Notes: a model not told the origin generated them from the sequence alone. Positions 22,279-62,348 are shown, numbered from the stretch's first letter. The stretch is DNA of 64,000 nucleotides from Giardia intestinalis (GCA_000002435.2 CM018791.1), one strand, 5' to 3'. Translations and numbers: made by a program.

Positions 22279-23229
22279 ATGGACTCGCTTCTGGCGGCAA
22301 TAGCAAGCCTGCGCGAGAACCCGGGAGCGAGGGGGGTGCAGACCGATAACGTTATCCTACAGGACCGGGCTCAGGGGCTGACCACGGTTGTCCTGCGGCG
22401 CAGAGAGGCCTTAGAGTCGAAGGTTAAGAGTCTCAAGTCTCAGACACCAGATGCACTGGGATCGCCAGACCCAGCTGACCAGCTTGTGATGGCGCCACAC
22501 AATGGCCTTATACTCATCAGGAACAGATTCAACATTATGGATGTACATCTACTCCTCTGCGCTGCAGAATTCGTCCATCAACTACAGCCTCTGGTGCTGA
22601 GTGACATGGAAGTAGTGCAGCCTCTTCTAGGGCGCGGAATTTTGGCTGCGTACAATGCCGGCAAGCTATCAGGGGCCAGTCAGCCCCGCAAACACATCCA
22701 ATTGATAGGGCTTCCTTTCCTCTCCAAGAATGAGTGGAATGTCTTTCCACTGAGGGCCCTTGTAGAACGTGAGCTTTCAGACCCAGATAGATGTGATGAA
22801 CCAGCTCAACTTTCCGTGTTTGCTGGGCGGAACCACGGGGTGATTCGCTTCAAAAGACCTCCATCACCAGCGAAGCTATATGCGCATTACACCAAGCTCC
22901 TAGAATATTGCAATGCTGGTGATCTTATCACCGTCAACAAGCACGAACTCGGCCTAGGCTTCGACAGGCCCTCGGCCAGTGCGCCTGAAGATGCTAGTGA
23001 TGAGTGCATGGTACAGGTTTATCGCCGCGATTTTTCATTGCTCATTGCTGAGGAGTTCATCTTCATAGGTGTGCGCGAAACTGAAAAGCCCTTTGAAATA
23101 GGGTGTAACAGCATAAGCTACACAGGAAACCTGTTTGTTAGCAGTGATGATCAGGAGCGGACAGTCGCTGAGGTGGGGCCGTTTGCTGTGCTGGCTGCGG
23201 GTCTGGAAGAACTTCCGCCTAAAAAATAA
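22279..23229 (+). CDS. Hypothetical protein (316 aa)
   Basis: Clean ATG ORF. Its TAA stop overlaps the ATG of the first alpha-giardin (TAATG at 23227-23231). No family was recognised. Confidence 0.55.
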   Translation: MDSLLAAIASLRENPGARGVQTDNVILQDRAQGLTTVVLRRREALESKVKSLKSQTPDALGSPDPADQLVMAPHNGLILIRNRFNIMDVHLLLCAAEFVHQLQPLVLSDMEVVQPLLGRGILAAYNAGKLSGASQPRKHIQLIGLPFLSKNEWNVFPLRALVERELSDPDRCDEPAQLSVFAGRNHGVIRFKRPPSPAKLYAHYTKLLEYCNAGDLITVNKHELGLGFDRPSASAPEDASDECMVQVYRRDFSLLIAEEFIFIGVRETEKPFEIGCNSISYTGNLFVSSDDQERTVAEVGPFAVLAAGLEELPPKK

Positions 23230-24119
23230 TGTCTGCCACGGTATCCACAGTGTCCGCGGATCTTCACAAAGCAATAGATGCTGGAGACGAGGACAAGATA
23301 ACCAAGATTACTGCGTCGTATGGATCTGAGCAGCGCGATAAGATCATTCCAGCCTATCACGCAAACTATGGCATCCCTCCCTCGGAAGCCATCCGCAAAG
23401 CGTTTAAGACAGGCTTCTATGAAACAATGATTGTGCACGCGTGGACTTCACGCTTTGAGCTCCGGGCGAAATTGATTCACGAGTCTATTAAAGGGAAGAT
23501 AGATGTGATAACACTACTGGATCTGGTTATAGCTTGCATGCCTGACGACTGGTACGGCACGAAGGTCTGTTACACAAAGCTCTATGGACGCGAACTTGTT
23601 AGAGAAATAGACGAAGTGATAGGGGTGGGTACTCCTTGGCAGAGTCTTGTTTCTGGCTGGGTCAAGCATGATAGAAAGTATCGCAAGTCAATAAAGAGTG
23701 ATGCGGAGGCGTTTCGAATGGCGCTAGACAGTGACAACTACGAAGTCCTCGGAAGTATGCTTGCGACAAGTGTCCCAGATGAATGGATGCGGATTGCCGC
23801 TGCATACGAAGAGACCACTGGGATGCCTATTGACCAGGCGATTGCATCCCGGTACGTGAAGGTGGACCAGACGGCCTTAATTCTAGCACACCACTGGCTT
23901 TGCGACCCGGGCCAGGCGGCTGCGTATATCTGCTCTCAGTGTTGCGCTGAGCGCAAAGGCAACTACGCACGGATTTGTCGCTTCACCTCCATGATGTACG
24001 ACCATTGCCTGAAGTGCAAGTACGCCTACAGGGCGTATGGGTCCCTCGCAATGGATATTCGGAAATGCTTCGAGCCTAAGCTAGCAAAGCATCTGCTAGT
24101 CTTTTGGCGCGTGGAGTAG
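23229..24119 (+). CDS. Alpha-giardin (annexin-like), array copy 1
   Basis: A 296-aa four-repeat annexin-like protein clearly paralogous to the three downstream copies (shared motifs such as LI..ALSGKND...DLVI.C..EDW and C.RIT.MM.D.CLA.KYAY..YG). The start context is aaaaaataATG. Confidence 0.85.
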   Translation: MSATVSTVSADLHKAIDAGDEDKITKITASYGSEQRDKIIPAYHANYGIPPSEAIRKAFKTGFYETMIVHAWTSRFELRAKLIHESIKGKIDVITLLDLVIACMPDDWYGTKVCYTKLYGRELVREIDEVIGVGTPWQSLVSGWVKHDRKYRKSIKSDAEAFRMALDSDNYEVLGSMLATSVPDEWMRIAAAYEETTGMPIDQAIASRYVKVDQTALILAHHWLCDPGQAAAYICSQCCAERKGNYARICRFTSMMYDHCLKCKYAYRAYGSLAMDIRKCFEPKLAKHLLVFWRVE

Positions 24120-24141
24120 TCTAGAGTTTGCGCATCTCATG

Positions 24142-24147
24142 AGTAAA
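24142..24147 (+). promoter_or_regulatory. AGTAAA polyadenylation signal of alpha-giardin copy 1
   Basis: It lies 22 nt after the stop at 24119. Confidence 0.5.
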
Positions 24148-24226
24148 GGCATGGTCTACTTGCAGTTTGAAACACGGTCATAATACTTTGGATAATTTGG
24201 CAGGCATCCAAAAAATAAAACCGCAA

Positions 24227-25120
24227 ATGGTCACCACGGTCCAAGATCTTGCAGAGCAGCTGAGGCAGGCTGTCGAAAGTTCCAATGAGCAGATGATAGC
24301 AGGACTGGCTAGCGCATACAGCGGTAAAGAACGAGAGAAGGTTCTGAGGGCGTATCTGAGCGCAACAGGTACCACTGCTGCCGACGCTATTCGTAAGGCC
24401 CTCAAGAACGGCCCCACCGAGAACTTGCTCGCCTATCTTTGGGATAAGCCCGGAGATGTGCGTGCCAAACTTATCCGCAACGCGCTTTCGGGGAAGAACG
24501 ACGAAGCTGCCCTTATTGACCTTGTTATCCACTGCAGTTCTGAGGATTGGTACAATACATGCACGGAGTATACAACAGATTACAAAAGGGTTCTCAACGA
24601 CGACCTTCTTTCAGACATAGGGACAAAGGAGCAGTGGACAAAGGTTTTCAAGCACTGGATCCTCCACAAGAGGTCTGACCGCTTCGACATCGATGGAGAT
24701 GAGAAGCGCCTGGTCACAGCCATCGGCAAGAAGGACTACGACACCATTGCAGAGATGCTAGGAACCACATCGGTCAGCGAGTACGCAAACATAGTCAGGA
24801 GAGCTGAGGTAACCTTGGGCAAAACCATAGACCAGGCCCTCTCTGCGGTCTGGTCTAAGCAAGACTTGGCAGTGCTTCTAGCCGCGCACTACGAGCTCCT
24901 CCACCCGGCGCGTCTAGCCTTCCACTTGCTTAAGCAGGCGCTCGACGGCAAAAAGCCCGATGAGGCGCGCATCATACGCATCACGGCCCTTACTTTCGAC
25001 ACCTGCCTTGCGGTGAAGTATGCAGCATCCGAGGCTGGCTACGACATTGGTTCTGCATTCGCTAAGGCCCTAGATAAGCGTCTCGCTCCCCTGATTAAAA
25101 TCCTCTGGCGTGTTATGTAA
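24227..25120 (+). CDS. Alpha-giardin (annexin-like), array copy 2
   Basis: Paralogous to copy 1. The track start at 24167 is a TTG. The first ATG at 24227 gives a 297-aa product matching the family length. Confidence 0.85.
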   Translation: MVTTVQDLAEQLRQAVESSNEQMIAGLASAYSGKEREKVLRAYLSATGTTAADAIRKALKNGPTENLLAYLWDKPGDVRAKLIRNALSGKNDEAALIDLVIHCSSEDWYNTCTEYTTDYKRVLNDDLLSDIGTKEQWTKVFKHWILHKRSDRFDIDGDEKRLVTAIGKKDYDTIAEMLGTTSVSEYANIVRRAEVTLGKTIDQALSAVWSKQDLAVLLAAHYELLHPARLAFHLLKQALDGKKPDEARIIRITALTFDTCLAVKYAASEAGYDIGSAFAKALDKRLAPLIKILWRVM

Positions 25121-25140
25121 AGGCGGCTATTACGCTTTCG

Positions 25141-25147
25141 AGTAAAC
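25141..25147 (+). promoter_or_regulatory. AGTAAAC polyadenylation signal of alpha-giardin copy 2
   Basis: Canonical Giardia AGTRAAY 20 nt after the stop. Confidence 0.55.
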
Positions 25148-25318
25148 GATCTCCAGTTGTGTGAGCCAAAGGAGAAACAGTGGCCGGCTCCCTCTTTTTG
25201 TTTTCTGGCCCAGGTTCTCTAGGAGCCCATCTACGGTTTACCTGGGCTCGTATGAAGCCCTGTAAACCTTCGAACCCTTCGCATCAGTTGGTAGAGGTCT
25301 CAGGGGCAGGAAAAAATA

Positions 25319-26227
25319 ATGACGTCCACTGTTGCTCAGATATGCTCGGATCTCAAGGGGGCTATCGACAAAAAAGACGAGCTTCGAATTGCCTTCATTG
25401 CCTCTGAATATTCGTCGCCGAGTCGTCTTAAAATCGCGCAGAGCTATGAAGCAACCTACAAAACCCCGATCACTGAAGCCATCAAAAAGTCCCTGAAAGG
25501 AGGAACTGCCGAGGATTTACTGGTGAATATGTGGGTCAGTAGACATGAGCATCGCGCAGAGCTGATAAATAAAGCCCTAGGCGGTTCCAGCGACGAAGAG
25601 GCGATTCGCGAACTGGTGTTTCTCTGCAATCCTGAAGATTGGCACGAGACCGCGTCTGTTTATAACCAAAAGTATCAGAAGATCATGCAGGACGCCGTCA
25701 CAAAGGCGATTGGAAGCAAAAGTCATTGGGCAAAGCTTGTGGCAGGTTGGATGGAACACAAACGTGAAGATAGGGGGTCGGTTGAAAACGATGTCAAGTA
25801 TTTGAAGGAGCTCATAGACGCACCCGTGACGGACGGAAATGCGTTAGCGCAATTCTTTGCCAGCACAACCCCTGATGAGTACACTCAGATAGCAGACAAG
25901 TTTTGCGAAGAATATAATTTAAGCATTGATCAGGCTCTTGTGAGGCCGCTAAAGGAGAACGAAGACGATCTGGAGGCATATGCTGCTGCCCACTTTGCGC
26001 TCCACGGGCTTCCCGTCTTGGCGGCCCAACTCATCAACAAAGCATGCAGACCCAAGAACGGAAACGAGCGAAGTATCTGCAGAATAACAACCCTCATGGT
26101 TGATCAGTGCTTGGCGGCAAAGTATGCGTATAAACTCTATGGAGACATGGGGGCAGACCTGTCTCGCTGCTTTGACGAGCGAATGGCCCCTATTTTGCGC
26201 ACGCTATGGCGCGTCACAGATGCATAG
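25319..26227 (+). CDS. Alpha-giardin (annexin-like), array copy 3
   Basis: A 302-aa paralogue with the same aaaaaataATG start context as copy 1. Confidence 0.85.
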   Translation: MTSTVAQICSDLKGAIDKKDELRIAFIASEYSSPSRLKIAQSYEATYKTPITEAIKKSLKGGTAEDLLVNMWVSRHEHRAELINKALGGSSDEEAIRELVFLCNPEDWHETASVYNQKYQKIMQDAVTKAIGSKSHWAKLVAGWMEHKREDRGSVENDVKYLKELIDAPVTDGNALAQFFASTTPDEYTQIADKFCEEYNLSIDQALVRPLKENEDDLEAYAAAHFALHGLPVLAAQLINKACRPKNGNERSICRITTLMVDQCLAAKYAYKLYGDMGADLSRCFDERMAPILRTLWRVTDA

Positions 26228-26296
26228 GATAAGCGAACTCATGATGGAAATTCAAATTACCTTAAAATATATTTTCTGAGCGCTTACATTTAGAAA

Positions 26297-27187
26297 ATGC
26301 CGAAGCTATCCCAGATCGTCGCTGACATGAAGCAGGCCATCGATGCCAAGGACGAGGCCCAGATCGCGTTCATAGCGTCGGAATACTCTGCAGATGCGCG
26401 TCAGAGGATTGCGCAGGGGTACAGGGACCAATACGGCAAGGAGCTCCCCGACGACATCAAGAAGGCGCTCAAGGGCGGCTCCGAGGAGAGCCTCCTGATG
26501 GATCTCTTCAGCGATCGTCACGAGGTCCGCGCCCAGCACATCCGCGACGCGCTTTCCGGCAAGAACGACCACATGGCCTTCTTCGACACAGTCATTCTGT
26601 GCACCCCCGAAGACTGGCACGAGACCGTCGCCGCCTACACGAGGATGTTCAAGAAGCCCCTCGTCGAGGACTTCATGAAGGATGTCGGCCGCAAGGAGAA
26701 TTGGTGTCTTTTCATGGAGAAGTGGATGGCTCACGAGCGCACTAGCCGTGAAGGCAGCCCTGACGAGGAAGCAGAGAAACTGAACAAGGCGTTCAGTGAG
26801 AGCGACCACGACTACATTTCCAGCTTCATGGCTGGGGTGCCTCCCGAAGAATACAAGTCCATCAACACCAGCTTCAAGAGCCTTACAGGAAAGGGCATCG
26901 ACCAGGCCTTCGCCACCATCTATACGGGGACTGACTACTACTCCCTGTACTGCGCCCACTTTGCTCTTCTTGGCATGCACAAGCTTGCCGCCTACCTGGT
27001 CAACTGCGCCTGCAACGATAAGGGCGACGAGAAGCGCATGAGGAGGATCACGGGCATGATGGTCGACAAGTGCTTGGCTGCAAAGTATGCCTACAAGACC
27101 TACGGGAGTATGAAAGCCGACGTCGAAAGGTGCTTTGATAAGCGCATGGCTCCGATCCTCTGTACCCTCTGGCGCCTAAGGGAGTGA
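26297..27187 (+). CDS. Alpha-giardin, alpha-1/alpha-2-giardin-like (array copy 4)
   Basis: At 296 aa it is closest to the recalled alpha-1/alpha-2 giardin sequence (KELPDDIKKALKGGSEESLLMDLFSDRHEVRAQHIRDALSGKNDHMAFFDTVILCTPEDWHETVAAYTRMFKKPLVEDFMKDVGRKE, CACNDKGDEKRMRRITGMMVDKCLAAKYAYK). The exact paralogue number cannot be assigned without a database. Confidence 0.9.
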   Translation: MPKLSQIVADMKQAIDAKDEAQIAFIASEYSADARQRIAQGYRDQYGKELPDDIKKALKGGSEESLLMDLFSDRHEVRAQHIRDALSGKNDHMAFFDTVILCTPEDWHETVAAYTRMFKKPLVEDFMKDVGRKENWCLFMEKWMAHERTSREGSPDEEAEKLNKAFSESDHDYISSFMAGVPPEEYKSINTSFKSLTGKGIDQAFATIYTGTDYYSLYCAHFALLGMHKLAAYLVNCACNDKGDEKRMRRITGMMVDKCLAAKYAYKTYGSMKADVERCFDKRMAPILCTLWRLRE

Positions 27188-27216: not shown

Positions 27217-27223
27217 AGTGAAT
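27217..27223 (+). promoter_or_regulatory. AGTGAAT polyadenylation signal of alpha-giardin copy 4
   Basis: AGTRAAY motif about 30 nt after the stop at 27187. Confidence 0.45.
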
Positions 27224-27235
27224 TGCCTAGCGGGT

Positions 27236-27242
27236 GTTTACT
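27236..27242 (-). promoter_or_regulatory. AGTAAAC polyadenylation signal overlapping the stop codon of the minus-strand membrane-protein gene
   Basis: The minus strand reads cAGTAAACa, with the TAA stop (27238-27240) embedded in the motif. Confidence 0.55.
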
Positions 27243-30198
27243 GCCTTCTGTTTCTTTTTGCCCTGTCCTGGCGGTCCAAGATGCTATCCTGCGATGAGAG
27301 GTCTTTCGAGAACGGATGCGAGAAGTCTGGGATTGCTACATGCCGTCCACCTGACTGTGAGGGTGAGTAGGACTGGAGTAGCGGCAAGGAGTGGGAGCTC
27401 ATGTTGTCCATAGAGCTGTATGCCTGATCAATCTGCCCATTTCCTGCTTGTCCTCTGCGGGTTTTTTGTTTCAGATCTGAGCTGCCTAACCGAGAGGGGC
27501 CGTACTCTATGCTTAGTTCTCTATTAACCAACTGAACAGCCTTTGCTCGCTTGCTTGCCAGTGTATATTTATATCTATATTTCAAGAACAGAGAGAGGAC
27601 CGTGATGAAGAGGAGCAGGATGAGTGTCGCAACGGACCAGAACACGACAATAAGGGCTATAGACATCTTAGAATGATAACCAACAAAGCTTATGAACTCC
27701 TCTCCACTGAAAGAAGAGGAAAGATACCGAGTCTCGTAAAACTGAATGGTAGTCCTATCGATGGTGTGCCCCCAGATAGGGTCTACTATCGGCTGGTTGG
27801 TAAGATTGCTTGCAGCGGTATCGACAGCTGCCACAACCACTAAGTAGTAAGGCTCGTGCTTGTACGAAGGAAGGTCAACGGGAATGCGAAGCATGGACCA
27901 GGTGTTATTTGCTTGCTCGATAAACTCAGGAGTATATATTTCAGTATTGTCTGCAGCGGGTGCAACGACCCACTCGCTTACTCTATAAACAACATTAGAT
28001 GTATCCATATCTTGTACACTAGGTGTATGCTCTAGTGCCCCCTCTAGCCCACATCTGGAAATAGGGACCATCGGATAGGCCTGTCTAACCTCAGCCACGG
28101 ATGCACACGGGACCAAGTAAACGGCGTATGCAATATGAATGCCGGCCTCTCCGGTGTAAGCGGTGTACCTTTGTGCCGGTGCCTTGGCGCTATCCACCTC
28201 AATTATGTCAGACATAAGTCCCGTATGGATTCTAACTCGCGAATCGCCAATGATGATCCCCGCAAACCTTGTTAAATACCCAATTTTATAAGAGATTGCT
28301 GAGGGAGAGACATATTCTGTATCAAGGATCCTAACAAATGTAGCGTATGACGAGTACACAGGGGCATACACCATTGCCTCTGTGATAGGAACAAGCATGT
28401 CCAGGAAATTGATTCCCGAATGATCCATGTTGTCGGTCAGGCGGAGCTTAATTGGTTTTTTGTTGCTTTGATTTGAAAGGAACAGAGACGTATTACAAAC
28501 ATCAAAATAGATGTACCCACTGAGAGTGCTGACTCCCGTAGTGTGGCCAGAGTCTATGTAATATAGGTTCAAGGCCGATAGTGGATTGCTCTCTGTTCCA
28601 TAGAGCAATCCTGGTCTCAACGGAGCTGGCTTGGCCGCGTTTAGAATCAGGAGATCCAAATCAACAGAATGTTCAAGCTTTATATAGATTGAGCCGGTAT
28701 CTGGCTGTACTGAGAAGTCTTCTGGGCGAATCCGGAGGACAGCAGATTTATTTGTTATTGCCTCGAGATAGGTTGGTATGACAGAGCTCCCTGCATAGTT
28801 AACTCCACTAAGGTGGGGGAAGTTCATAACGTAAGCAAGAGAGTTATGAGTTTCGTTCGGATAGACAAGCGTAGTACTTAAGAAGAACTGCACATACGGG
28901 TGAAAGTTGGGAATAGAGACTTCGTAGAACGGGCGGAGCGTGATAACAACAACGAGCTCATCATCTATCCAGCCAGGATTCTCTATGATGAGAAGGGTTG
29001 CCTTGTTGCGATTATTTTTATTCACGAAGGATAGTGTCTCTGTGGCGCCGGTTATGAAGTTAACGTTAGTAAGGAATATCTTGCAGCTCCCGGCACTCTT
29101 TAAATTATATATCTCTGCTGACGTTGAGGCCTGGTACCCGGCAAACGAGGATAAGTCGGAGACATAGATAGAGGAAAGGTATCCTGGCGGAGTTACCTCC
29201 TGTACGGTCATCCACGCGTACCGAAGAGTGTTCTGCAGTATTAGGGAGCAGGCTACACTAAGGATATTATATCTAAGACAGATCCTGATGGAGGAATAAG
29301 GAATGCGCTCGGCGTCGAGACAGGTCGAGCCTATTAGTATTTGTGTTCCTGCTCGATAGTCAGATATGTCAACGGTATAGTGTATGGGTACATTATAATA
29401 GTCTATCTGCAAGTCAGGAGTAAAGCGCTGGTAGCGCTCAACATACGATATTGTCAAAGAGGAGAGTTCGTCGTGGAGATTGACAGTAAGGTAGTAGAAG
29501 CTTGACTCCATAAAGAGGCGCTTTGGGAGCGTTAAGTGGTCCTCTTGGTCGTTGGTAGCAGCAACGTACTGATACGTGTTACCAACAGAGCGAATGAGTA
29601 GGGTGGTAGGGTTGGCCAGCGACTCTCTTTTTGTAGCGAACGGTTGAGAATGAAGATCGATGAAGCAAGTAGGAGGAGCGTTCGCAGGTGTTTTATCGCC
29701 ATCAGAGAATGTGAGGAGGATGTCATGGAGTCCATCGTTTGCTAAGGCGAGAACACGCTCGCTTGCACGTGCATTGCCAGCAATAGTTATACTTTTTCCA
29801 TATATCAACTGCCTAAAGAGCCCGGCTGTGAAGTTTATGGTCGTAGGCATGGTAGCCTGGACTGTGAAATCGATGACAGATGGTGTAGAGCTTTCAGATA
29901 GCTGAATCAAGGAGGCTACTGTTTCCAACGGAATGGCAGTCATGTTGCTTCCCGTCGTTAACAAAAGCGGTATCCTCCCTACAGATACGCTCACAGTCGA
30001 CGTCTTTGCATAGGAAGTAAGGTTGACGCATAGGAGAGGCGAACTATTATGAACTGGCGTATATGTATACCTTATAGTGGCTGTGGAGTCTATGTCTAGA
30101 GAGATTGGTTCCATGTCCTTTATATTATAGACTCCTTCAGTGCTATGGGACGCTAGTATCATGGAAAGAAGAGCGAGTTGCAGTGTTCCCGGCCCCAT
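27238..30198 (-). CDS. Large type I membrane glycoprotein (signal peptide, approx 830-aa ectodomain, one TM, approx 110-aa cytoplasmic tail), family unknown
   Basis: The track start at 30207 is a TTG, and the ATG is at 30198. The N-terminal signal peptide is MGPGTLQLALLSMILASHS. It has many N-x-S/T sites, a single TM helix (IALIVVFWSVATLILLLFITVLSLFL) and a basic/Ser-rich tail. Confidence 0.75.
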   Translation of the reverse strand: MGPGTLQLALLSMILASHSTEGVYNIKDMEPISLDIDSTATIRYTYTPVHNSSPLLCVNLTSYAKTSTVSVSVGRIPLLLTTGSNMTAIPLETVASLIQLSESSTPSVIDFTVQATMPTTINFTAGLFRQLIYGKSITIAGNARASERVLALANDGLHDILLTFSDGDKTPANAPPTCFIDLHSQPFATKRESLANPTTLLIRSVGNTYQYVAATNDQEDHLTLPKRLFMESSFYYLTVNLHDELSSLTISYVERYQRFTPDLQIDYYNVPIHYTVDISDYRAGTQILIGSTCLDAERIPYSSIRICLRYNILSVACSLILQNTLRYAWMTVQEVTPPGYLSSIYVSDLSSFAGYQASTSAEIYNLKSAGSCKIFLTNVNFITGATETLSFVNKNNRNKATLLIIENPGWIDDELVVVITLRPFYEVSIPNFHPYVQFFLSTTLVYPNETHNSLAYVMNFPHLSGVNYAGSSVIPTYLEAITNKSAVLRIRPEDFSVQPDTGSIYIKLEHSVDLDLLILNAAKPAPLRPGLLYGTESNPLSALNLYYIDSGHTTGVSTLSGYIYFDVCNTSLFLSNQSNKKPIKLRLTDNMDHSGINFLDMLVPITEAMVYAPVYSSYATFVRILDTEYVSPSAISYKIGYLTRFAGIIIGDSRVRIHTGLMSDIIEVDSAKAPAQRYTAYTGEAGIHIAYAVYLVPCASVAEVRQAYPMVPISRCGLEGALEHTPSVQDMDTSNVVYRVSEWVVAPAADNTEIYTPEFIEQANNTWSMLRIPVDLPSYKHEPYYLVVVAAVDTAASNLTNQPIVDPIWGHTIDRTTIQFYETRYLSSSFSGEEFISFVGYHSKMSIALIVVFWSVATLILLLFITVLSLFLKYRYKYTLASKRAKAVQLVNRELSIEYGPSRLGSSDLKQKTRRGQAGNGQIDQAYSSMDNMSSHSLPLLQSYSPSQSGGRHVAIPDFSHPFSKDLSSQDSILDRQDRAKRNRRQ

Positions 30199-30270
30199 TA
30201 TGGGCAAAACTGTTTGTAGAGATGAGGATGGGTTTGCTTTTTATTTTTCTCTGAGTATTTCTACTCTACC

Positions 30271-51754: not shown

Positions 51755-51922
51755 AGGGTCAGACGAAAGGCGGTTTCTTCCTCACGTTGGGCTCAGCGGT
51801 AGCTGATTTATCTCTCTTCATCTACGAACCCCTTTTCTGTGAGCTGCAAAGTGAATTTAAAATACAATCTATTTTTAAAGTATCTTTTCATCACATTATG
51901 GCGTAATACATTTCCTCGCCAG

Positions 51923-54250: not shown

Positions 54251-56528
54251 CGGAATGTATTTTGGTAATTGGCTTTGTGTTTCTATTGCTTAGTAGGATT
54301 TCTATACTCTTTTACATTCCTGCAACGCTTGCGAAAGCATAATAATCACATATAATAAGCTTAATATATTTTTATTGGTCAAACCGTCCTCAGTACTTAA
54401 TACTAGAAATGTGGACGCATTAATGGATATGTATTGTGAGTAAACGTGCTTATTTTAATGAGTATCATTTTAACCATTGATGATTAGAATCGTTGGCTAC
54501 ACTTATAGAATATGCTATTACATACAAAAGATATGCATAGGGCACTGGCCAATTAATAGTTCTCTTCTACTGCGCTAGTTTGGCGTCTGTTGTGATCTTG
54601 TGTCCTGTCTCGTCATCAATAAACTTTTCTGTTATGGATAGCATCATCGATGGCTGGTCATTCGATAGCTACAGTTGCGACAATCATCGTCAGTTATTCT
54701 TGCTGGCGGAGACAGGCCTCAGGAAGATACTTGTTCGGAGATCCCGTTTGCGTCCACTACGGCGCCTATCCTGAGAAGACAATGCTAACTTGCGTAAGGT
54801 ACTTCCACTGCTCATTCCCGCTGGTCCAGATAAACGCCTTGCATACTTCGGATTGCCCTCTGCTGGCAACAGAGCAGCCACTGCCCTTTGTGTTTCCTTC
54901 AGACACATGCCCATCTATGACGGCGCTTCTTGTCTCTTCTCTGGTGAGGCATAACCGCACCAATCCAGACACCTTGCTCTCAGCACGCATCTCGTATCCA
55001 GCAGAAGCCAGGTGTTCGTCAGCCATATCCCGTGAGCATCAGCACTGTGCCACTATGTTACTTCCTGTCCTTCTTGAGGGGCGTGCTCTAATCATCCCAG
55101 TGTCTCTATGATAGGAGAGCTGTGGATCCGGAGGCTGCTGTGGCTTTCTGGCCCTCTCTGCTGTCCAGGAGAATCCAAACTCGCCCTTCGGGAGTCGGTC
55201 CCCTAACCTTCTGTTCTCTCGGGGAAGTGGTCCTTGGATAGTGCTACCCAGAGGGCTCCCGAAGCCTCACTATATGGGTGCTGCTTCTAAGAACTCCTGG
55301 AGTATCCTTAGAGAGTCTCCCAGTGGCGCAAATCCTACCCATTGTCAGCGGAGGTCTCGGCTCTCAAGGACATCTCAGGGACAGCACGCCGGTGCCACTT
55401 CCTGACGGGGGCCAGGCGGGGGCCGCTCACCCTTGTGGATCCATCATTGGCATCGAGAGCACTAAGCCTGCCATCTTCGCTGGAGGTGTCAGCAGACGGT
55501 ACTCCGCATCCACCTATGGAAGGGCTGAGTCGTGTGCTGTCGTCATAATATTCCATATTAATGCAGATAAATCTCCCGGTGGCACTTGGGGATACCCAGC
55601 ACAGCACGCTAATATGTTGCTTGCTCGAGCTATCGCTCAGATCTGCGATCCCCGTGGTCTGGGCCAGGTGCCTTGAATGGCCTCCAGCCCTAGTAGGAGC
55701 ACAGGTCGGTGCTCCTTGTTCCAAACAAGCATTCCGTCTATTGTGCCCAGCCCTGAAAGACTCGCTCCTTCGCAGGTGCCCGAGCCAAGCGCTGTCTGCC
55801 GCCCAGGAGGCGTGCTGGCATTCAACAGAGAGGCTTGCAGATACCACAGACCTCGTTGGTAAAGCGCCTGGGCCCCTGCCCTGGGCACGAGTAAGAAGCC
55901 CCAGCAGTACTTCGCTGCGGACTATGACACGGCTCCTGTGTGCACCAGGCGATGCACAGCAGCCACGAGTGTGCAGTCCTCTGCGCCTGCCCACCGATGA
56001 CGCAGCTGGGGCCTGTGGGGCAGCAGGGCCGAGACATACATATGGGAGGCGCCAACGGGCATTGGGCTATTGGCCGTCAAATGGTGGGTATGACTTGAGA
56101 GGTGGCTCGCGGCAAGTAGTTTACTCGACCGCAGCAGACAGGATCGCCTTTGGCCTAAAACCGCCATGTGTCGGTAGATGCACCTGTGTCTTCCACCATT
56201 GTTCTGTGTGCTATTATTATATTCTGGCTTCTCTAGATTTAGCAGAGGCATCTAACAAGGAATTCACAACTAGAGGCTGGCCCAACAGCCAGAGAGGCGT
56301 CTATTGGGCTGTACACCCATGCACCGGATTGTCTCGAAGGCGTCGTTCCCTCTCTAATTACGTGCCCTGTCCCCGGTCCGTACCAGCGAAAGTCTTACTG
56401 AGACACCCACTGTCCAGGATACTGACCAGACCACCAGGCAGCGATTGGCCGGAATAAGGGAGAGCCGCTCTCCTTGGCATACTCTACTATGTGCGTGCAA
56501 GAATGGATGGACCATAAAGTGAGGCCAC

Positions 56529-58949
56529 TCAGTTTTTCTTTCGGAAGACGAAAAACCAAACCAGCACACCCGCCACACCGCCGACGACGAGGACCACGCT
56601 GATGGCGATGCCAGAGATGGCACTAGACGAGAGGGCGGACTTTTTGGAGGTGCTGTCGTACTCCAGACATACGGGTGTGGCTGCACCCTCTGGAACCACG
56701 CAGAGGCTGCACTTGGAGATCGCCTTGTGACACGCCTTGCACGTGCTCTCGGAGAAGTAGTACCCGGCCAGGCAGTCAAAGCATACCTCCCCATGGGGGC
56801 AGGTGGCGCAGCCCTTGGAGCACGCCTTGCACGCCCCCTTCTCCAGGTAGAACCCGCTGTTGCAGGCGTTGCAGACCCCACTGCTACACATTGCGCAGTT
56901 CGTCGGGCATGTAAGGAGCGTTCCGTTGTACGTTATCCCGTACCCGGTCACGGTGCTGTCACACCAGCCGTTACTCTCCTTCGTGCAGACAGTCTTCCCG
57001 GGGAGGAGCGTGGAGGTGTAGCACCCCCCGTTGAGGCTGAAGGAGTTTGAGCTGCAAGCAGCACATCTACCGGCAGCGACATTCGCGCACGCGATGCCAG
57101 CCGCCCGCAAGCTGGAGAAGGTGCACGCCCCGTTGTTGGGGTACTCCGTGCTCTTGGCGCAGCGCGAGCAGTAGCTGGTCCCGCCCACCGTGAGCCCGCA
57201 CTCTGCACAGCTGCTGTCCTGCACGCACTGCGGGACGCACGATCCCTTGGCACCGTCGCTGTACTGCAGCCGCTTCCTGGCAGGGCAGGAGGTGCAGTCA
57301 CCGGACGCCGGTCCGCTGCACGTGGCACACTCAGAGCTGCACGGCTTGCATCCTCCCGAGCCCTCGACGTAGAACCCGTCCCTGCAGGTCTTGCACTTGG
57401 ATTCCGACTCGCAGACTGCGCAGTTGCCGAGCGTGCACGCCACGCACCTCGAGACGCCCCCCACGGTGGCCTTGTAGTACCCGGCGGAGCCCAGGCAGTC
57501 CTTCACGCACAGACCGTGGGGGTCGAGGCTGTTGCCACCGGCACACTTTGTGCATACGTTTCTGTCCTCGCACGTGTCGCAGTTGGGGTCCTTGCACTTG
57601 GTCGCCACGCACTGACTGCCGGAGAGTGTGTAGCCATACTTGCACTTCTTACAGCTCGACTCGTCACACTCAGCGCAGTTCTCCACCGCGCACCCGACGC
57701 ACTTCCCGTCCTTCAGATATGACCCGTCATCGCACGCGCAGCTGTGGACCGAGGATGAGGACCCCTTTATGCCCTTCTGCCCCTTGGGACAGCTGGCCAG
57801 GCAGCTCCTCTTATCCAGGCTCAGGTAGAGGTCGCGGCACTCCAGACACTGAAGACTACTGTCCTTCATCTCACACCTTTGGCATCCCTCTATTCCCCCG
57901 TTGGCTGAGTCCCCGCAGCGCCAGCATCCGTTGTTCTTGGTGAACACTTCATTGATTGAACTGTTGCATGCAGTACACACATTGTTTTGCACTGTCTGAC
58001 AAATCTGAGACCCTACTTGACCTGGAGCATAACTAAATAAGTAGCATCCACCATAAAACAAGAAGTATTGCCTGTTGCTATCATTCTTACAAGATGTGCA
58101 TTTTCCCGTTTCAGAATCTTTCGTACAAACATTATCAAATCCGCTAATTGACCCACAGAGGCCATTCTGAGGCACTTCTGATGAATTGGCACATTGTGTG
58201 CACAACGATTGTCCCTGTATATCTATAGTATTTCTTGGTAAACAGATACTGTTGCCAATTACACTATCTGTGGTATAACACCCAAACTGACTCCAGACGT
58301 AACCCCTAGGACAAAAGTAACAATAGCCGAGCTCGAGTCCCTTAACAGACCTACATCGAAAATCAAAAGGGCACATAAATCGTTCTGAGCATTCGCTACA
58401 GCTGGGTATAGTGTTCCCTGGCAACCTATGTTGGTTACAGTACTGACACCTATATACACCACTACTCCCGCCAAAGCCTACTATATCTCCGCAGTAGATA
58501 CAGCGTTCAGGAGAGGTCGCATTAGGGTTGGTAAAAGTTATTGGAGTATAGTACGTACTACCCTTTCCGCACTCTTGACAAATCCCATTTTCTGCACGAT
58601 CGCAAATACTTGCTTTCCATCTGCCAGACAATTCATAGCAGCCACCGTAAAATAAGAAGTAACCATTTTTACATCCTGTGCACCATCCACCTTTCGGCGA
58701 TTTAACACAACCGGCTTTATTAACTTTTTCGTCTGTAGTAGCAACACATGTGCCGTTGATGGGAACATAATCCTGGCTACACTCTGTGCAAAAAAAAGCA
58801 CCTAAGTCCACTAGGCATCTATCCTGAAGACACTGTGAGATCTTGCCTTCACAAGAATACCCAAAGCCATTGTAGTATACAAACGTTTCCTCAGAGAAAG
58901 ACCCTGCCAGAAAACAAGTCAGAATCACGATCAGCGAAGCCAAAGTCAT
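56529..58949 (-). CDS. High-cysteine membrane protein (HCMP; VSP-like Cys-rich ectodomain, not a VSP)
   Basis: Signal peptide MTLASLIVILTCFLAGSFS. It has dozens of CxxC/CxC motifs and GYY/GYF (GGCY-like) repeats. The C-terminal TM plus RKKN tail differs from the VSP CRGKA tail. ATG at 58949. Confidence 0.85.
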   Translation of the reverse strand: MTLASLIVILTCFLAGSFSEETFVYYNGFGYSCEGKISQCLQDRCLVDLGAFFCTECSQDYVPINGTCVATTDEKVNKAGCVKSPKGGWCTGCKNGYFLFYGGCYELSGRWKASICDRAENGICQECGKGSTYYTPITFTNPNATSPERCIYCGDIVGFGGSSGVYRCQYCNQHRLPGNTIPSCSECSERFMCPFDFRCRSVKGLELGYCYFCPRGYVWSQFGCYTTDSVIGNSICLPRNTIDIQGQSLCTQCANSSEVPQNGLCGSISGFDNVCTKDSETGKCTSCKNDSNRQYFLFYGGCYLFSYAPGQVGSQICQTVQNNVCTACNSSINEVFTKNNGCWRCGDSANGGIEGCQRCEMKDSSLQCLECRDLYLSLDKRSCLASCPKGQKGIKGSSSSVHSCACDDGSYLKDGKCVGCAVENCAECDESSCKKCKYGYTLSGSQCVATKCKDPNCDTCEDRNVCTKCAGGNSLDPHGLCVKDCLGSAGYYKATVGGVSRCVACTLGNCAVCESESKCKTCRDGFYVEGSGGCKPCSSECATCSGPASGDCTSCPARKRLQYSDGAKGSCVPQCVQDSSCAECGLTVGGTSYCSRCAKSTEYPNNGACTFSSLRAAGIACANVAAGRCAACSSNSFSLNGGCYTSTLLPGKTVCTKESNGWCDSTVTGYGITYNGTLLTCPTNCAMCSSGVCNACNSGFYLEKGACKACSKGCATCPHGEVCFDCLAGYYFSESTCKACHKAISKCSLCVVPEGAATPVCLEYDSTSKKSALSSSAISGIAISVVLVVGGVAGVLVWFFVFRKKN

Positions 58950-60529
58950 GAAGCTATTATTCTTTATTGGATACCTATGAAAGTTACACGCACTAATCCG
59001 AGTCAGCCACTGAAAGCCTTGGCTTAGAATTACAACTGTCAGAGTAATACCCCTTGTACTTCTTACAGACAGACTACAGCCGGCAGACCCATAGAAGGGC
59101 CCGCTCTACTTATACTAGTCATCGACTCACACGGCGACCTGAGCAGCCTGTAATCTGGCTCTGCAATGAAACAGTTAGGCGATCTGTTTGTCCCCACTCT
59201 CAAGCGGAATTGCCTAATTCAAAATTACTAACATACGCTTCAAAGTTTCGCAGGACTTACAGTACAGAAAACTCATTGAGAACCTATTCCGAGCAAACAC
59301 GTCCGGTACACAACCACCTCGCAAAGGACTCTCTGCTGTCAAGGAGATCCTCTCGAGGTCTATGAGTGGGGTGACTGTAAGCGAGCTTCTTGAAGAATGG
59401 CCGTTTTCAGGCGCCTGTCCATCCCCTTACCCCGATGTTCCGGGAACCAGCATCAGTCATATCTTCGTTGAGCAAGGGCACTGTGGAGGGGACTCTGCAG
59501 GGCCTAACGAGCGTTCGAAGGTGCAGCAGAACAACGACGAGACACGGTATGCCGTCGCATAGGCACTAAGATCTTGCTGACCTGTGCACTGAAGGATGCA
59601 GGCCATCCGAGTCCTTCTCTGTATGCAATCGTAGCCTGCTGCTTTCGTCGGTGTTTGTCATCCACGAGGGCCCTTATTACCCGAAGCCCTAGAGCCCTGA
59701 GGTCGTACTGCGGCAAGCATCTGCTCTACAGGTGCTGACGTACAGGCCACTTTACTTTATTACTGGCAGTCGGAGAATACTTCGACGTGGTTTGTTCAGA
59801 GACGCCAGGAGTACAGCCAAGTACCTTGCCGATAAGCACAACATCCAGCCCCAGAAGAACATCTAGTCCTCCTGACGCACGATGCGGCCATGTTTGTCTT
59901 CTGCTGGTACCGGGCCCAAACGGACAGCCTGCTTACTGAAGAAGAACGTATGCAGTTAGACACCTTTGAAGGCCTGGCCTGCCTTAGCAACCCAATTCAC
60001 TGCAGAGTGCCCTTTGCTGCTCCCCGCCCCCAATGCACGGAGATTTAATCAAGCGTGATGATTCATTGCACCCGCCGGCCACGCCCAGCCCTGCCCGCGG
60101 GCGTCTCACTCAAGTCCCGGCCGTCCTGGTGGGCGCGGGTCTCCGCAACCCTTTTCAACAAAGCTCCCACCTGTCGCGGCGGCGGCTGTCGGCCTCTGGC
60201 TCACCGGCTGGGGCCGCCCCTCCGCGAGGAGCTCTGCGACGTCCCTGTTCCCCGCCTGCGCAGCGAGCAGCAGGGCCCTGCGGCCGTCGGCGCCCTCCCT
60301 CTCGTGCTCTGCGGGGCGGGGATCCGGGCCACCCTGGGGCGGTTCCCGTGGGCGGCGTGCATGAGGCCGTCACCCCCTACTCGTCACGTTTGCTGATGCC
60401 AATCCCTCTTCAAGTAGTGTCCGGACGGTCTCTGTGTTGTTTGTGTGCAGCGCGCATCAGCCTGAGGAAGACTGTGGGTACCGGCCGCTCCATCCTGTCA
60501 CTAAGCTGCATGACCTTGGCCTCTAGCCT

Positions 60530-61684
60530 TCACGTGGCCAGATGCCCTTTACCCTGATCCTCGAGAGTGCCCTTAAGAGAGGCAGTCTCAGCAGACCTGG
60601 CGTCGAGGGCCGCCTCAAGAGTAGTAATCCTGTCCAGCTTGGTCTTGGCATCCTCCTCCAGAAGTGTAATCCTGGCGTTAGCACTGTTCAGAGTAGTCTC
60701 CAAGGCGCCGCACTTGTACCTCAGCATCACGCACTGACCCCCCAGCTCACTAACTGGGATGTCGAATGTAGCGAGCGTCTCGTGCAGCTCCCTGGCCGTC
60801 GGCCTCCTCTCTGGCTCCAGCACGAATATCCTCTCCAGAACATTCTGCATGAAGCCATCAGTGACATCGCTCAGGTCCGGCCTCCACCCATCGACGAAGA
60901 CCTCTGCTGGGACTTTACCTTCTAGGAAGTCCGGTTTCCTTAGAGTAGTAAGCTCGTAGAGGATGACCCCGAGGCTCCACACGTCGGAGGCGGGGCTGGC
61001 CTCGTTGCGAAGGAGCACCTCGGGGGCCACGTATGCCATTATTCCCATGAGAGTGCTCCCACTCCACAGGGCGTCCTTGCAGAGGCCGAAGTCGGCGATG
61101 ATGAAGCGCTCTCCGTCTGCGCTGACGAGGATGCTGGCAGGCCTGAGGTCGCGGTGGACGAGCCCCCTAGTACCTATCCCACTGAGGCCGTAGAGATAGG
61201 CGAGGGCGGCAGCGACCTGCCTCAGGACGGAGAGGATCACAGCGATAGGGATGAGAGTCTTCCTTCGTTTGTGCTCGGTGAGGAGGCGCTCGAGGGTCTT
61301 GTCGTGCCGGTCTATGACGACATAGATGAGACCTTCGTCCTCGACTACTTGGTGGTGCCTGAGGACCCCCGGATGGGAGAGGTCGAGAAGGGCGGTCAGC
61401 TCTAGTCTGATGGCATCTGCACTGTTCTTATCTAAGCCGTCGAGGAGGATCTCCTTCAGGGCAAGGCTCGGATATCCCTTGAGGGAGTAGACTACACCTG
61501 CGACGCTTTCATTAGGCACGCTATCCAGTCGCTCGTGGAGTTCCCTGAGGGCGAAGTGCAGGGGGCTGGACGCGCGACTGCCACCGCCGCCCACGAATTC
61601 CGTTTTTGGACGCCCGGGCGATCGATCGGACGGCCCGCGGAGAGGCCGCTCCTGCCGGCCCTGTGGCAGCGAGCGATGCCGCAC
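60530..61684 (-). CDS. NEK-like protein kinase with C-terminal coiled coil, with no in-frame ATG before the kinase C-lobe (possible pseudogene or non-AUG start)
   Basis: Kinase motifs are present (VGGGGS, LALKEI, HRDLRPASIL, ADFGLCK, YVAPE). The ORF opens with a GTG 19 codons after an upstream in-frame TAA. The first in-frame ATG is at residue approx 215 (STLMGIMAY). Confidence 0.5.
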   Translation of the reverse strand: MRHRSLPQGRQERPLRGPSDRSPGRPKTEFVGGGGSRASSPLHFALRELHERLDSVPNESVAGVVYSLKGYPSLALKEILLDGLDKNSADAIRLELTALLDLSHPGVLRHHQVVEDEGLIYVVIDRHDKTLERLLTEHKRRKTLIPIAVILSVLRQVAAALAYLYGLSGIGTRGLVHRDLRPASILVSADGERFIIADFGLCKDALWSGSTLMGIMAYVAPEVLLRNEASPASDVWSLGVILYELTTLRKPDFLEGKVPAEVFVDGWRPDLSDVTDGFMQNVLERIFVLEPERRPTARELHETLATFDIPVSELGGQCVMLRYKCGALETTLNSANARITLLEEDAKTKLDRITTLEAALDARSAETASLKGTLEDQGKGHLAT

Positions 61685-61805
61685 CTGTCCACCCGTAGGG
61701 CCGAGGTCAGTAAACGGCCGGTGGCTGCCTGCACCAAATATTTACTGGGCTGACAGGACAGCACTGCTTTTAAAACTATAACAAGTTTCAAAATAAGAAA
61801 CCTTG

Positions 61806-62348
61806 ATGAAGGTTGTGATTCAGAGGGTTCACTCTGGTTCTGTCACTATTAATAAGGGCAAAGATACAGAGTATGTTAGCGGAAGCATTGGAAGGGGGTA
61901 CGTAGTTCTAGTTGGAATCAGTCGCGAGGATGTCATTGAAGACATGCACTATATAATAGGAAAGCTCCTAGCCGCAAGACTTTTCCCAGACGAAACTGGA
62001 AAGGAGTGGGCGCGGAACATTATTGAAGTAGAGGGAGAGATTTTGCTTGTTTCTCAGTTTACTCTATATGGATTTCTAAACGGAAACAAACCAGACTTCC
62101 ACGAGGCAATGAAGAGTGAAGAAGCTGGCCCGCTGTTTGACAAGTTTGTTCAGCATGTGAAAGAGAAGTATGTTTCAGATCGCGTGCACACAGGGGTCTT
62201 TGGGGGTGACATGGTCGTATCAATTGAAAACGATGGTCCTACTACGTTAACAATAGATAGCCGTGTGAGTGCATACGCGAAAGATGCCGCTGGGATGGCT
62301 AAAATAGGGGGGAACAAAACGTGGAAGAAATACAACCCCGATAAATAA
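61806..62348 (+). CDS. DTD: D-aminoacyl-tRNA deacylase (D-Tyr-tRNA(Tyr) deacylase, DTD) with C-terminal extension
   Basis: MKVVIQRV...GRGYVVLVGI...LVSQFTLYG...GVFGGDMVVSIENDGPTTL matches the DTD signature motifs SQFTL and NDGP(V/T)T. The track start at 61803 is a TTG and the ATG is at 61806. Confidence 0.85.
   Translation: MKVVIQRVHSGSVTINKGKDTEYVSGSIGRGYVVLVGISREDVIEDMHYIIGKLLAARLFPDETGKEWARNIIEVEGEILLVSQFTLYGFLNGNKPDFHEAMKSEEAGPLFDKFVQHVKEKYVSDRVHTGVFGGDMVVSIENDGPTTLTIDSRVSAYAKDAAGMAKIGGNKTWKKYNPDK

Follow-up and report, generated by a model that had tools for sequence, protein, structure and literature searches.

Four clustered alpha-giardin genes of Giardia intestinalis WB and a tract shared between alpha-2 and alpha-1 giardin

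Introduction

Four annexin-like genes of the alpha-giardin family lie head to tail at 23229-27187 of a 64,000-nucleotide stretch of Giardia intestinalis DNA (GCA_000002435.2, CM018791.1; the window, as the whole analyzed stretch is called below). Such an arrangement raises the question of whether the cluster arose in place, so that its order records its history, and whether its members still exchange sequence. A first-pass annotation of the window had called the array a textbook example of local duplication, and had suggested that the order and divergence of the copies could indicate their duplication history and possible gene conversion. The alpha-giardins form a 21-member family, reported to be conserved 'along with the genome synteny' in isolate GS (PMC2723961), and their loci have been compared between G. 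intestinalis and G. muris (PMC4863580). Gene conversion in Giardia has so far been discussed for the VSP genes (PMC7641422), and our literature search returned no report linking alpha-giardins with gene conversion; it may be mentioned in older alpha-giardin papers, and priority is not claimed. We consider it very probable that, as a whole, the locus is explained as an annotated, old cluster of separate genes that arose only partly by duplication in place, and of which one member, alpha-2, undergoes ectopic conversion with alpha-1 giardin, a gene outside the window.

Results and Discussion

The array is the known alpha-4/alpha-6/alpha-5/alpha-2 giardin cluster

The source organism is G. intestinalis WB (assemblage A1), and the window is a piece of a reference Giardia chromosome. 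By exact-sequence look-up, the four open reading frames (ORFs) were matched to GIA4_GIAIN, GIA6_GIAIN, GIA5_GIAIN and GIA2_GIAIN, all from one WB contig of 1,973,847 bp. Because these are exact matches to named WB proteins, the paralogue numbers were settled without phylogeny: the four genes are the annotated, already known alpha-4/alpha-6/alpha-5/alpha-2 giardin cluster, and their coordinates as four same-strand, head-to-tail ORFs of 296, 297, 302 and 296 aa were confirmed (Table 1). With proteins identical to the reference WB entries of these group E annexins and genes without any difference, the array itself adds nothing new to what is annotated and studied in the reference genome. The alpha-4 giardin gene is presumably GL50803_7799 of GiardiaDB.

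The annexin-like assignment was borne out by several approaches in addition to the named matches. All four proteins scored above the Pfam gathering threshold for Annexin (PF00191; 36.8-55.3 bits, cut-off 25) and also for ANXE1_4th, the fourth repeat of annexin E1 (PF22293; 82.9-110.2 bits, cut-off 27). All four also aligned over their full length (from residue 1/5 or so to 295) to 4EVF, the sequence of the alpha-1 giardin crystal structure, with E values of 1.7e-159 for alpha-2, 3.4e-79 for alpha-5, 4.2e-62 for alpha-6 and 5.9e-55 for alpha-4. Matches to alpha-11 and alpha-14 giardin were likewise found, animal annexins were matched more weakly, and no further annexin gene was found in the 64-kb window. 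The canonical type II Ca2+ motif G-x-G-T...(D/E) of the AB loops was searched for, and no G.GT occurs at these loops in any of the four proteins; degenerate KGGS/KGGT sequences are present in alpha-2 and alpha-5, and a single GVGT is found at residue 132 of alpha-4. Poor preservation of type II Ca2+ sites is the known state of alpha-giardins (PMC4863580), and the missing motif, which defines classical annexins, does not count against membership in the family.

Each gene is thus predicted to encode a four-repeat annexin-fold protein of approximately 296 aa, a group E annexin for which the literature suggests membrane and cytoskeleton association. Table S1D of PMC7641422 names alpha-5 as a ventral-disc protein, and alpha-2 is likewise placed among the disc proteins. 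For alpha-4, a cytoplasmic and flagellar-root location and binding to EB1 have been reported; the published translation-blocking alpha-4 morpholino matches window positions 23228-23252 (PMC11001682). For the four array proteins, these functions are presumed.

We compared the same locus in P15 (assemblage E), GS_B (assemblage B, GSB below) and a DH-like assembly (assemblage A2). The gene order alpha-4, alpha-6, alpha-5, alpha-2 is shared by assemblages A, B and E, with the same neighbors in P15, GSB and the DH-like assembly: an Ap4A-type gene upstream and an opposite-strand gene of about 985 aa downstream. Copy-number variation across isolates, proposed as a check by the first-pass annotation, was not detected, with one copy of each gene in these three assemblies. 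Amino-acid identity among the four copies is 32-45%, and alpha-4 and alpha-6 share 32-37% with the others. As the annotation had proposed, the last copy is alpha-1/alpha-2-like (it is alpha-2 itself, 77% identical to alpha-1), and the first three are more divergent, with identities to alpha-2 of 34% (alpha-4), 37% (alpha-6) and 45% (alpha-5). The ratio of nonsynonymous to synonymous divergence (dN/dS) between assemblages is 0.015-0.018 for alpha-4, 0.02-0.055 for alpha-6, 0.019-0.025 for alpha-5 and 0.025-0.044 for alpha-2, compared to 0.11-0.13 for the neighboring gene. With dN/dS at 0.015-0.055, the four giardins are functional and tightly constrained. With no nucleotide stretches in common, they are old paralogues that have diverged in function rather than recent copies, in an order fixed in assemblages A, B and E.

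A tract of alpha-2 is homogenized with alpha-1

Among the four array genes no conversion was detected: in a repeat search the longest similar stretch was 33 nt at 85%, a conserved motif. Thus, the conversion for which the annotation had recommended a GENECONV test does not occur among the four copies, but its signature is present between alpha-2 and alpha-1 giardin. By accession order, about 40 gene models separate the array from alpha-1, which is found upstream of it on the same WB contig at a distance of three models from alpha-8, and in G. muris alpha-1 and alpha-2 are on different chromosomes. The two proteins share the four-repeat annexin fold (4EVF/4EVH for alpha-1) and form a mosaic in several isolates, in which residues 1-45 and 135-295 (the N-terminal 45 residues and, further on, repeats III-IV) are paralogue-specific and residues 46-134 are almost identical. 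Variable residues within this central segment (89, 99, 101 and 111) follow the isolate, not the paralogue.

For DNA comparison we used alpha-2 of the window, P15, GSB and the DH-like assembly, alpha-1 of P15, GSB and DH, and both G. muris genes. Over nt 136-405 of the coding sequence (CDS), the two paralogues of one isolate differ by 3 nt (P15), 8 nt (GSB) and 6 nt (DH), at a synonymous divergence (dS) of 0.02-0.10, and DH alpha-1 differs from WB alpha-2 by 4 nt. Orthologues compared between assemblages over the same segment differ by 14-24 nt (dS 0.28-0.51). Immediately downstream, over nt 406-675, the relationship is reversed, with 96-101 nt differences between paralogues and 3-49 nt between orthologues. 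In the flanks of the three same-isolate G. intestinalis pairs, paralogue dS was 1.0-2.3 in 11 of 12 comparisons, the remaining value being 0.37 for the N-terminal segment of DH. Within the tract, ten P15-specific and seven GSB-specific variants, nearly all at third codon positions, are common to both paralogues of the isolate, and the longest perfectly identical alpha-1/alpha-2 run is 260 bp for P15 and 257 bp for GSB.

These patterns were supported by two statistical approaches. When polymorphic sites were permuted in the manner of GENECONV, runs of 27-30 concordant sites were reached in 0 of 10000 permutations (1-2 of 10000 for the DH pairs), and cross-isolate alpha-1/alpha-2 pairs, included as controls, were not significant. 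By bootstrapping, alpha-1 of P15 and of GSB was nearest to the alpha-2 of its own isolate within the tract, and nearest to another alpha-1 in the flanks, in 1000 of 1000 replicates. A second, shorter tract toward the 3' end shows identical runs of 54-74 nt in the G. intestinalis pairs and a dS of 0-0.36, compared to above 1 in flanking sequence.

The G. muris genes carry low-divergence tracts of their own, at nt 77-247 and 631-779; the second of these shows only 2 differences in all and is identical over 93 nt (nt 687-779). The alpha-1 genes of G. muris and G. intestinalis have the same upstream gene and are 75% identical, and the orthology of G. muris alpha-2 is supported by its adjacency to alpha-5. 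Since both genes occupy syntenic positions and their flanks group by paralogue, the alpha-1/alpha-2 duplication predates the split from G. muris. The apparent monophyly of G. intestinalis alpha-1 plus alpha-2 in a full-length tree (95%) is therefore an effect of conversion, the duplication being older than the species.

Taken together, these results give good support to non-allelic gene conversion between alpha-2 and alpha-1, which would be the sole ongoing recombinational process at the cluster. A sharply bounded tract of about 260 bp, spanning the end of repeat I and repeat II, and the shorter 3' tract have probably been homogenized independently in each assemblage and in G. muris, and the N-terminus and repeats III-IV stay paralogue-specific. 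The signature is observed directly in the alignments; conversion as its mechanism is inferred, and either gene may have overwritten the other. We regard as evenly balanced the fuller proposal that an ancient, functionally distinct pair has been homogenized repeatedly at residues 46-134 and in the short 3' segment, in separate events in G. muris and in assemblages A, B and E, and that its sharp, recurrent boundaries are presumably kept because selection preserves the differences in the N-terminus and in repeats III-IV.

Textbook examples of ectopic gene conversion with bounded tracts are the primate gamma-globin genes and CYP21A2/CYP21A1P. The alpha-2/alpha-1 pair resembles such concerted evolution in that a discrete tract is homogenized together with its synonymous sites, the flanks diverge and the trees are incongruent. 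Unlike the textbook cases, both genes are functional and strongly constrained, they lie tens of kb apart (on different chromosomes in G. muris), and conversion of the same region appears to have taken place separately in several lineages of this organism, whose sexuality is debated.

Selection and assembly collapse as improbable sources of the shared tract

Four points weigh against conversion as the source of the tract. The same-genome comparison for WB rests on the protein level, on the near-identical DH alpha-1 gene and on a chimeric Logan contig; the P15, GSB and DH sequences are from draft assemblies; dS between assemblages is reduced in the tract (0.28-0.51, compared to 0.25-2.4 in the flanks), except that the flank dS of alpha-1 between assemblages A and E (0.13-0.28) is below that of the tract (0.37); and G+C at third codon positions (GC3) is 0.87-0.92 in the tract compared to 0.60-0.88 in the flanks. 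The low tract dS and high GC3 may reflect some constraint or a GC-biased process acting on synonymous sites as well, such as GC-biased conversion or codon-usage selection.

Carried to its limit, this argument would attribute the near-identity of residues 46-134 to extreme purifying selection on the protein or RNA rather than to conversion, in keeping with the high conservation of the tract protein in all G. intestinalis sequences and with its synonymous divergence and GC3. Selection of this kind cannot explain why orthologues still differ at 14-24 mostly synonymous tract sites, why isolate-specific synonymous states are common to both paralogues and why the tract clusters by genome, and we consider this explanation extremely improbable.

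The draft state of the genomes raises a further alternative, namely that the reads of both paralogues were collapsed during assembly. Short-read and 454 assemblies do err at this location. The GS draft protein EET01090, labelled alpha-2 giardin and located at the syntenic position, joins an alpha-2 N-terminus (aa 1-134) to an alpha-1 C-terminus, and the C-terminal part of GS alpha-2 is found separately as EET00264, a 204-aa fragment encoded on a different contig. In the GS_B assembly, which came later, alpha-2 is intact (ESU45130), and misassembly across the shared tract probably gave rise to the chimera. Logan contig L003 (SRR29338404, 1-1730) runs similarly from the alpha-5 3' end through the spacer and the alpha-2 5' half into the alpha-1 3' half. 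The WB-like Logan contig L011 (SRR3177805, 1-165) stops at alpha-1 CDS nt 165, exactly 30 nt into the tract, and an end 30 nt past the last alpha-1/alpha-2 difference is expected of a k=31 graph. Exact WB alpha-1 and alpha-2 proteins were found on 1 contig each, compared to 62-187 contigs for alpha-4, -5, -6 and -8. Chimeras and breaks of this type are, however, what a truly shared repeat would produce, and the pairs of P15, GSB and DH retain 3-8 differences within the tract and thus were not merged. The WB proteins P17063 (alpha-1) and P19389 (alpha-2), which we take to derive from separately cloned genes, agree throughout residues 46-134 except for K89R, and the tract variants of the assemblies recur in alpha-1 sequences derived by polymerase chain reaction from many isolates. 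We therefore judge a collapse artifact to be very improbable and retain gene conversion as the source of the tract.

Implications for alpha-1 and alpha-2 giardin

The bounded, recurrent conversion of alpha-2 with alpha-1 is the only point of some interest at this locus. Both giardins are immunodominant antigens and also serve as vaccine candidates and as targets for typing, and primers, peptides or antibodies directed against residues 46-134 cannot separate the two. Full-length trees wrongly suggest a recent alpha-1/alpha-2 duplication within G. intestinalis, and short-read assemblies break or turn chimeric at the shared tract. If true, repeated conversion would explain the chimeric GS alpha-2 model, and may partly explain the confusion over alpha-2 as assemblage A-specific. 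The remark of Franzen et al. 2009 (PMC2723961) that GS alpha-1 differs from that of WB 'mostly in the N-terminal region' may likewise stem from the chimeric GS model. The tract would provide a clean non-VSP case of ectopic recombination between dispersed Giardia genes, with bearing on recombination in a tetraploid, rarely sexual organism.

The array is only partly the product of duplication in place

A neighbor-joining tree with bootstrap was constructed from named G. intestinalis and G. muris proteins, and the four ORFs fell among the named alpha-giardins, as the first-pass annotation had predicted. Alpha-1 and alpha-2 grouped at 100%, alpha-5 was their sister at 97%, and alpha-6 followed with weak support; alpha-4 grouped with alpha-8 (71%) and with G. 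muris alpha-9 (61%). An alignment-based homologue search returned 5 proteins and no further paralogues, and single-sequence searches were also sparse.

In G. muris, alpha-5 and alpha-2 alone are found in tandem, 43 bp apart, at a site syntenic with the right side of the window, and the genes downstream of the pair have their orthologues at 51.6-54.2 kb of the window. The alpha-6 gene of G. muris (47% identical) is solitary on another chromosome, and to its left are a leucine-rich-repeat (LRR) protein, a WD40 protein, a histone, a spindle-pole protein, a CCDC61-like protein and a CAMK kinase, orthologues of the genes at 6.8-19.5 kb of the window. Because its left and right flanks match different G. 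muris regions, the G. intestinalis array straddles a synteny breakpoint between alpha-6 and alpha-5. Either an array inherited from the common ancestor came apart in G. muris, or rearrangement brought the array together in G. intestinalis; the comparison would be consistent with both ancestral arrangements.

Alpha-4 and alpha-8 giardin were not among the listed G. muris matches of the orthologue table, nor in a search of representatives clustered at 50% identity, and both are likely absent from G. muris. It counts against this reading of the locus that a close alpha-4 could hide within such clusters.

The simplest account of the locus is a plain series of tandem duplications in place, in which the array order is its history, no rearrangement took place and conversion was confined to the array. 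The head-to-tail orientation of all four genes agrees with this account, as do the identities to alpha-2, which climb along the array from alpha-4 through alpha-6 to alpha-5, and a tree of the form ((alpha-1, alpha-2), alpha-5) followed by alpha-6, which fits stepwise duplication of alpha-6, alpha-5 and alpha-2. Members of a simple tandem array would be one another's closest relatives; here the nearest relative of alpha-2 is alpha-1, outside the array, and the nearest group of alpha-4 is alpha-8/alpha-9, so that the alpha-5/alpha-2 adjacency is the only one that fits local duplication. Nor does the array occur as a unit in the sister species, G. muris having the alpha-5/alpha-2 pair, and alpha-6 on another chromosome beside orthologues of the window's left side. 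With no conversion signal among the four copies either, we regard a plain tandem series as unlikely. Of the proposed textbook local duplication, then, the head-to-tail arrangement and the alpha-5/alpha-2 adjacency stand, and the unlinked alpha-6 of G. muris and the grouping of alpha-4 elsewhere speak against it. The cluster arose by in-place duplication only in part, with the alpha-5/alpha-2 tandem already present in the common ancestor with G. muris.

Clustered annexin paralogues in another diplomonad, Spironucleus salmonicida (chromosomes 3, 4 and 6), have likewise been read as duplication loci; these annexins are not orthologous to alpha-giardins, and the expansions are independent (PMC4863580).

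Several giardins are gathered around alpha-1 itself. G. muris alpha-9 is 5.8 kb downstream of alpha-1 (contig L002, 12732-12888), and in G. intestinalis two genes separate alpha-1 from alpha-8, the two giardin genes being in divergent orientation (contig L011, 1-5352). Alpha-4 is most similar to alpha-8 and G. muris alpha-9, that is, to proteins of the alpha-1 locus, and the array and this locus may thus have an ancient connection.

Start regions, spacers and 3' signals of the four genes

Conserved start regions were observed directly before the ATG of each gene, in agreement with the proposal that each copy has its own AT-rich initiator, and the aaaaaataATG ascribed to copies 1 and 3 is present at both (Table 1). 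Upstream of alpha-4, an Ap4A-phosphorylase/ATP-adenylyltransferase-like gene identified by Pfam occupies 22279-23229. Its TAA stop codon overlaps the alpha-4 ATG by 1 base (TAATG, 23227-23231), an overlap kept in P15, GSB and the DH-like assembly, and the alpha-4 initiator therefore falls inside the preceding CDS. Before the alpha-6 ATG, a block of about 50 bp is almost invariant across assemblages A, E and B, and the remaining spacer diverges.

Measured to the accepted ATG codons, the spacers have lengths of 107, 198 and 69 bp. The annotation had given a range of 47-198 bp, and its lower value applies only if copy 2 starts at the in-frame TTG at 24167 (a 317-aa model); the UniProt and RefSeq alpha-6 is the 297-aa ATG product. 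Some automatic annotations, those of DH and GS_B, stretch alpha-6 to 317 aa (TTG) and alpha-5 to 329 aa (contig L007, 3886-4839 and 4937-5926), and the reference proteins give these no support; the alpha-6 extension (window 24167-24226) spans the conserved upstream block. Between WB and GSB, the alpha-6/alpha-5 spacer is 60% identical, compared to 72-78% for the other spacers.

The AGTRAAY poly(A) signal that had been reported for each copy is exact after alpha-6 and alpha-2; alpha-4 has AGTAAAG, and alpha-5 has none. Since the motif is not enriched across the window (28 found compared to 31.6 expected), only its position after stop codons is informative. Between the alpha-5 stop codon and the alpha-2 start region there is no exact AGTRAAY and no conserved candidate with one mismatch, which counts against the reading of the locus given here; the nearest candidates are AGCGAAC at 26232, not conserved in assemblage B, and AGAAAAT over the alpha-2 ATG (AGTAAAA in assemblage B). 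The array would thus consist of four separate intron-less genes, each with a short AT-rich start region directly before its ATG and three of the four with an AGTAAA/AGTGAA-type signal 21-30 nt past the stop codon. The start and poly(A) sites are predicted, and their promoter and poly(A) roles are suggested by conservation. An operon-like, polycistronic arrangement was also considered and set aside, as a conserved start region precedes every gene and a 3' signal follows three of them.

Two ORFs were detected antisense to the array, one of 224 aa at 26306-26980 (-) inside alpha-2 and one of 131 aa at 24137-24532 (-) across the alpha-6 start; both are most likely by-products of codon bias. The unused RefSeq number XP_001706960, between those of alpha-6 and alpha-5, may have belonged to an antisense model of this type.

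Table 1. Coordinates of the giardin genes, shared tracts and predicted signals in the window.
Feature	Position	Strand	Remarks
alpha-4 giardin gene	23229..24119	+	296 aa; exact protein match XP_001706962 / Q4VPQ3
alpha-6 giardin gene	24227..25120	+	297 aa; exact protein match XP_001706961 / Q4VPQ5; ATG at 24227
alpha-5 giardin gene	25319..26227	+	302 aa; exact protein match XP_001706959 / Q4VPQ4
alpha-2 giardin gene	26297..27187	+	296 aa; exact protein match XP_001706958 / P19389
Main putative ectopic conversion tract with alpha-1	26432..26698	+	alpha-2 CDS nt 136-402, aa 46-134, ~260 bp
Second, shorter low-divergence tract with alpha-1	27000..27073	+	CDS nt ~704-777; boundaries vary by isolate; statistically weaker
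AT-rich initiator of alpha-4, aaaaaataATG	23221..23231	+	Identical in DH-like, P15 and GSB
Conserved block 5' of alpha-6, ggtcataatactttggataatttggca...atccaaaaaataaaaccgcaa	24176..24226	+	Presumed promoter/initiator
AT-rich initiator of alpha-5, ggaaaaaataATG	25308..25321	+	Invariant in four isolates
AT-rich start region of alpha-2, cttacatttagaaaATG	26283..26299	+	Kept in four isolates; tagtaaaATG in GSB
AGTAAAG, poly(A)-signal-like, after alpha-4	24142..24148	+	Last base departs from AGTRAAY; AGTAAA core kept in four isolates
AGTAAAC, predicted poly(A) signal after alpha-6	25141..25147	+	Kept as AGTAAAC or AGTAAAT
AGTGAAT, predicted poly(A) signal after alpha-2	27217..27223	+	Invariant in four isolates
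alpha-6/alpha-5 spacer	25121..25318	.	198 bp; lowest conservation in the array; site of the synteny breakpoint between G. intestinalis and G. muris

Neighboring genes and other features of the window

Downstream of alpha-2, a gene of 989 aa at 27238-30207 (-) has no Pfam match and keeps its position in assemblages A, B and E. An 888-aa gene occupies the same position in G. muris, and no tblastn match was found between the two; the 989-aa gene is either fast-evolving or not orthologous to it. Just downstream of the array, an uninterrupted ORF of 6975 aa (20.9 kb) extends over 30271-51198 (+). It is also found in P15, GSB and the DH-like assembly, where it is cut off at the locus end, and the partial products have no recorded Pfam family.

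By Rfam scan of the window, no match was found within the giardin array, and the Giardia C/D-box small nucleolar RNA GlsR8 (RF02337) was located at 51757-51826 (-), with 104 bits and an E value of 4e-24, above the gathering score. The G+C content is about 0.60 at 56001-58000 and 60001-62000, compared to 0.44-0.52 elsewhere, and these G+C-rich stretches overlap ORFs at 56529-58949 (-), which resembles a 1613-aa G. muris protein beside alpha-1, and at 60530-61684 (-), which resembles kinases.

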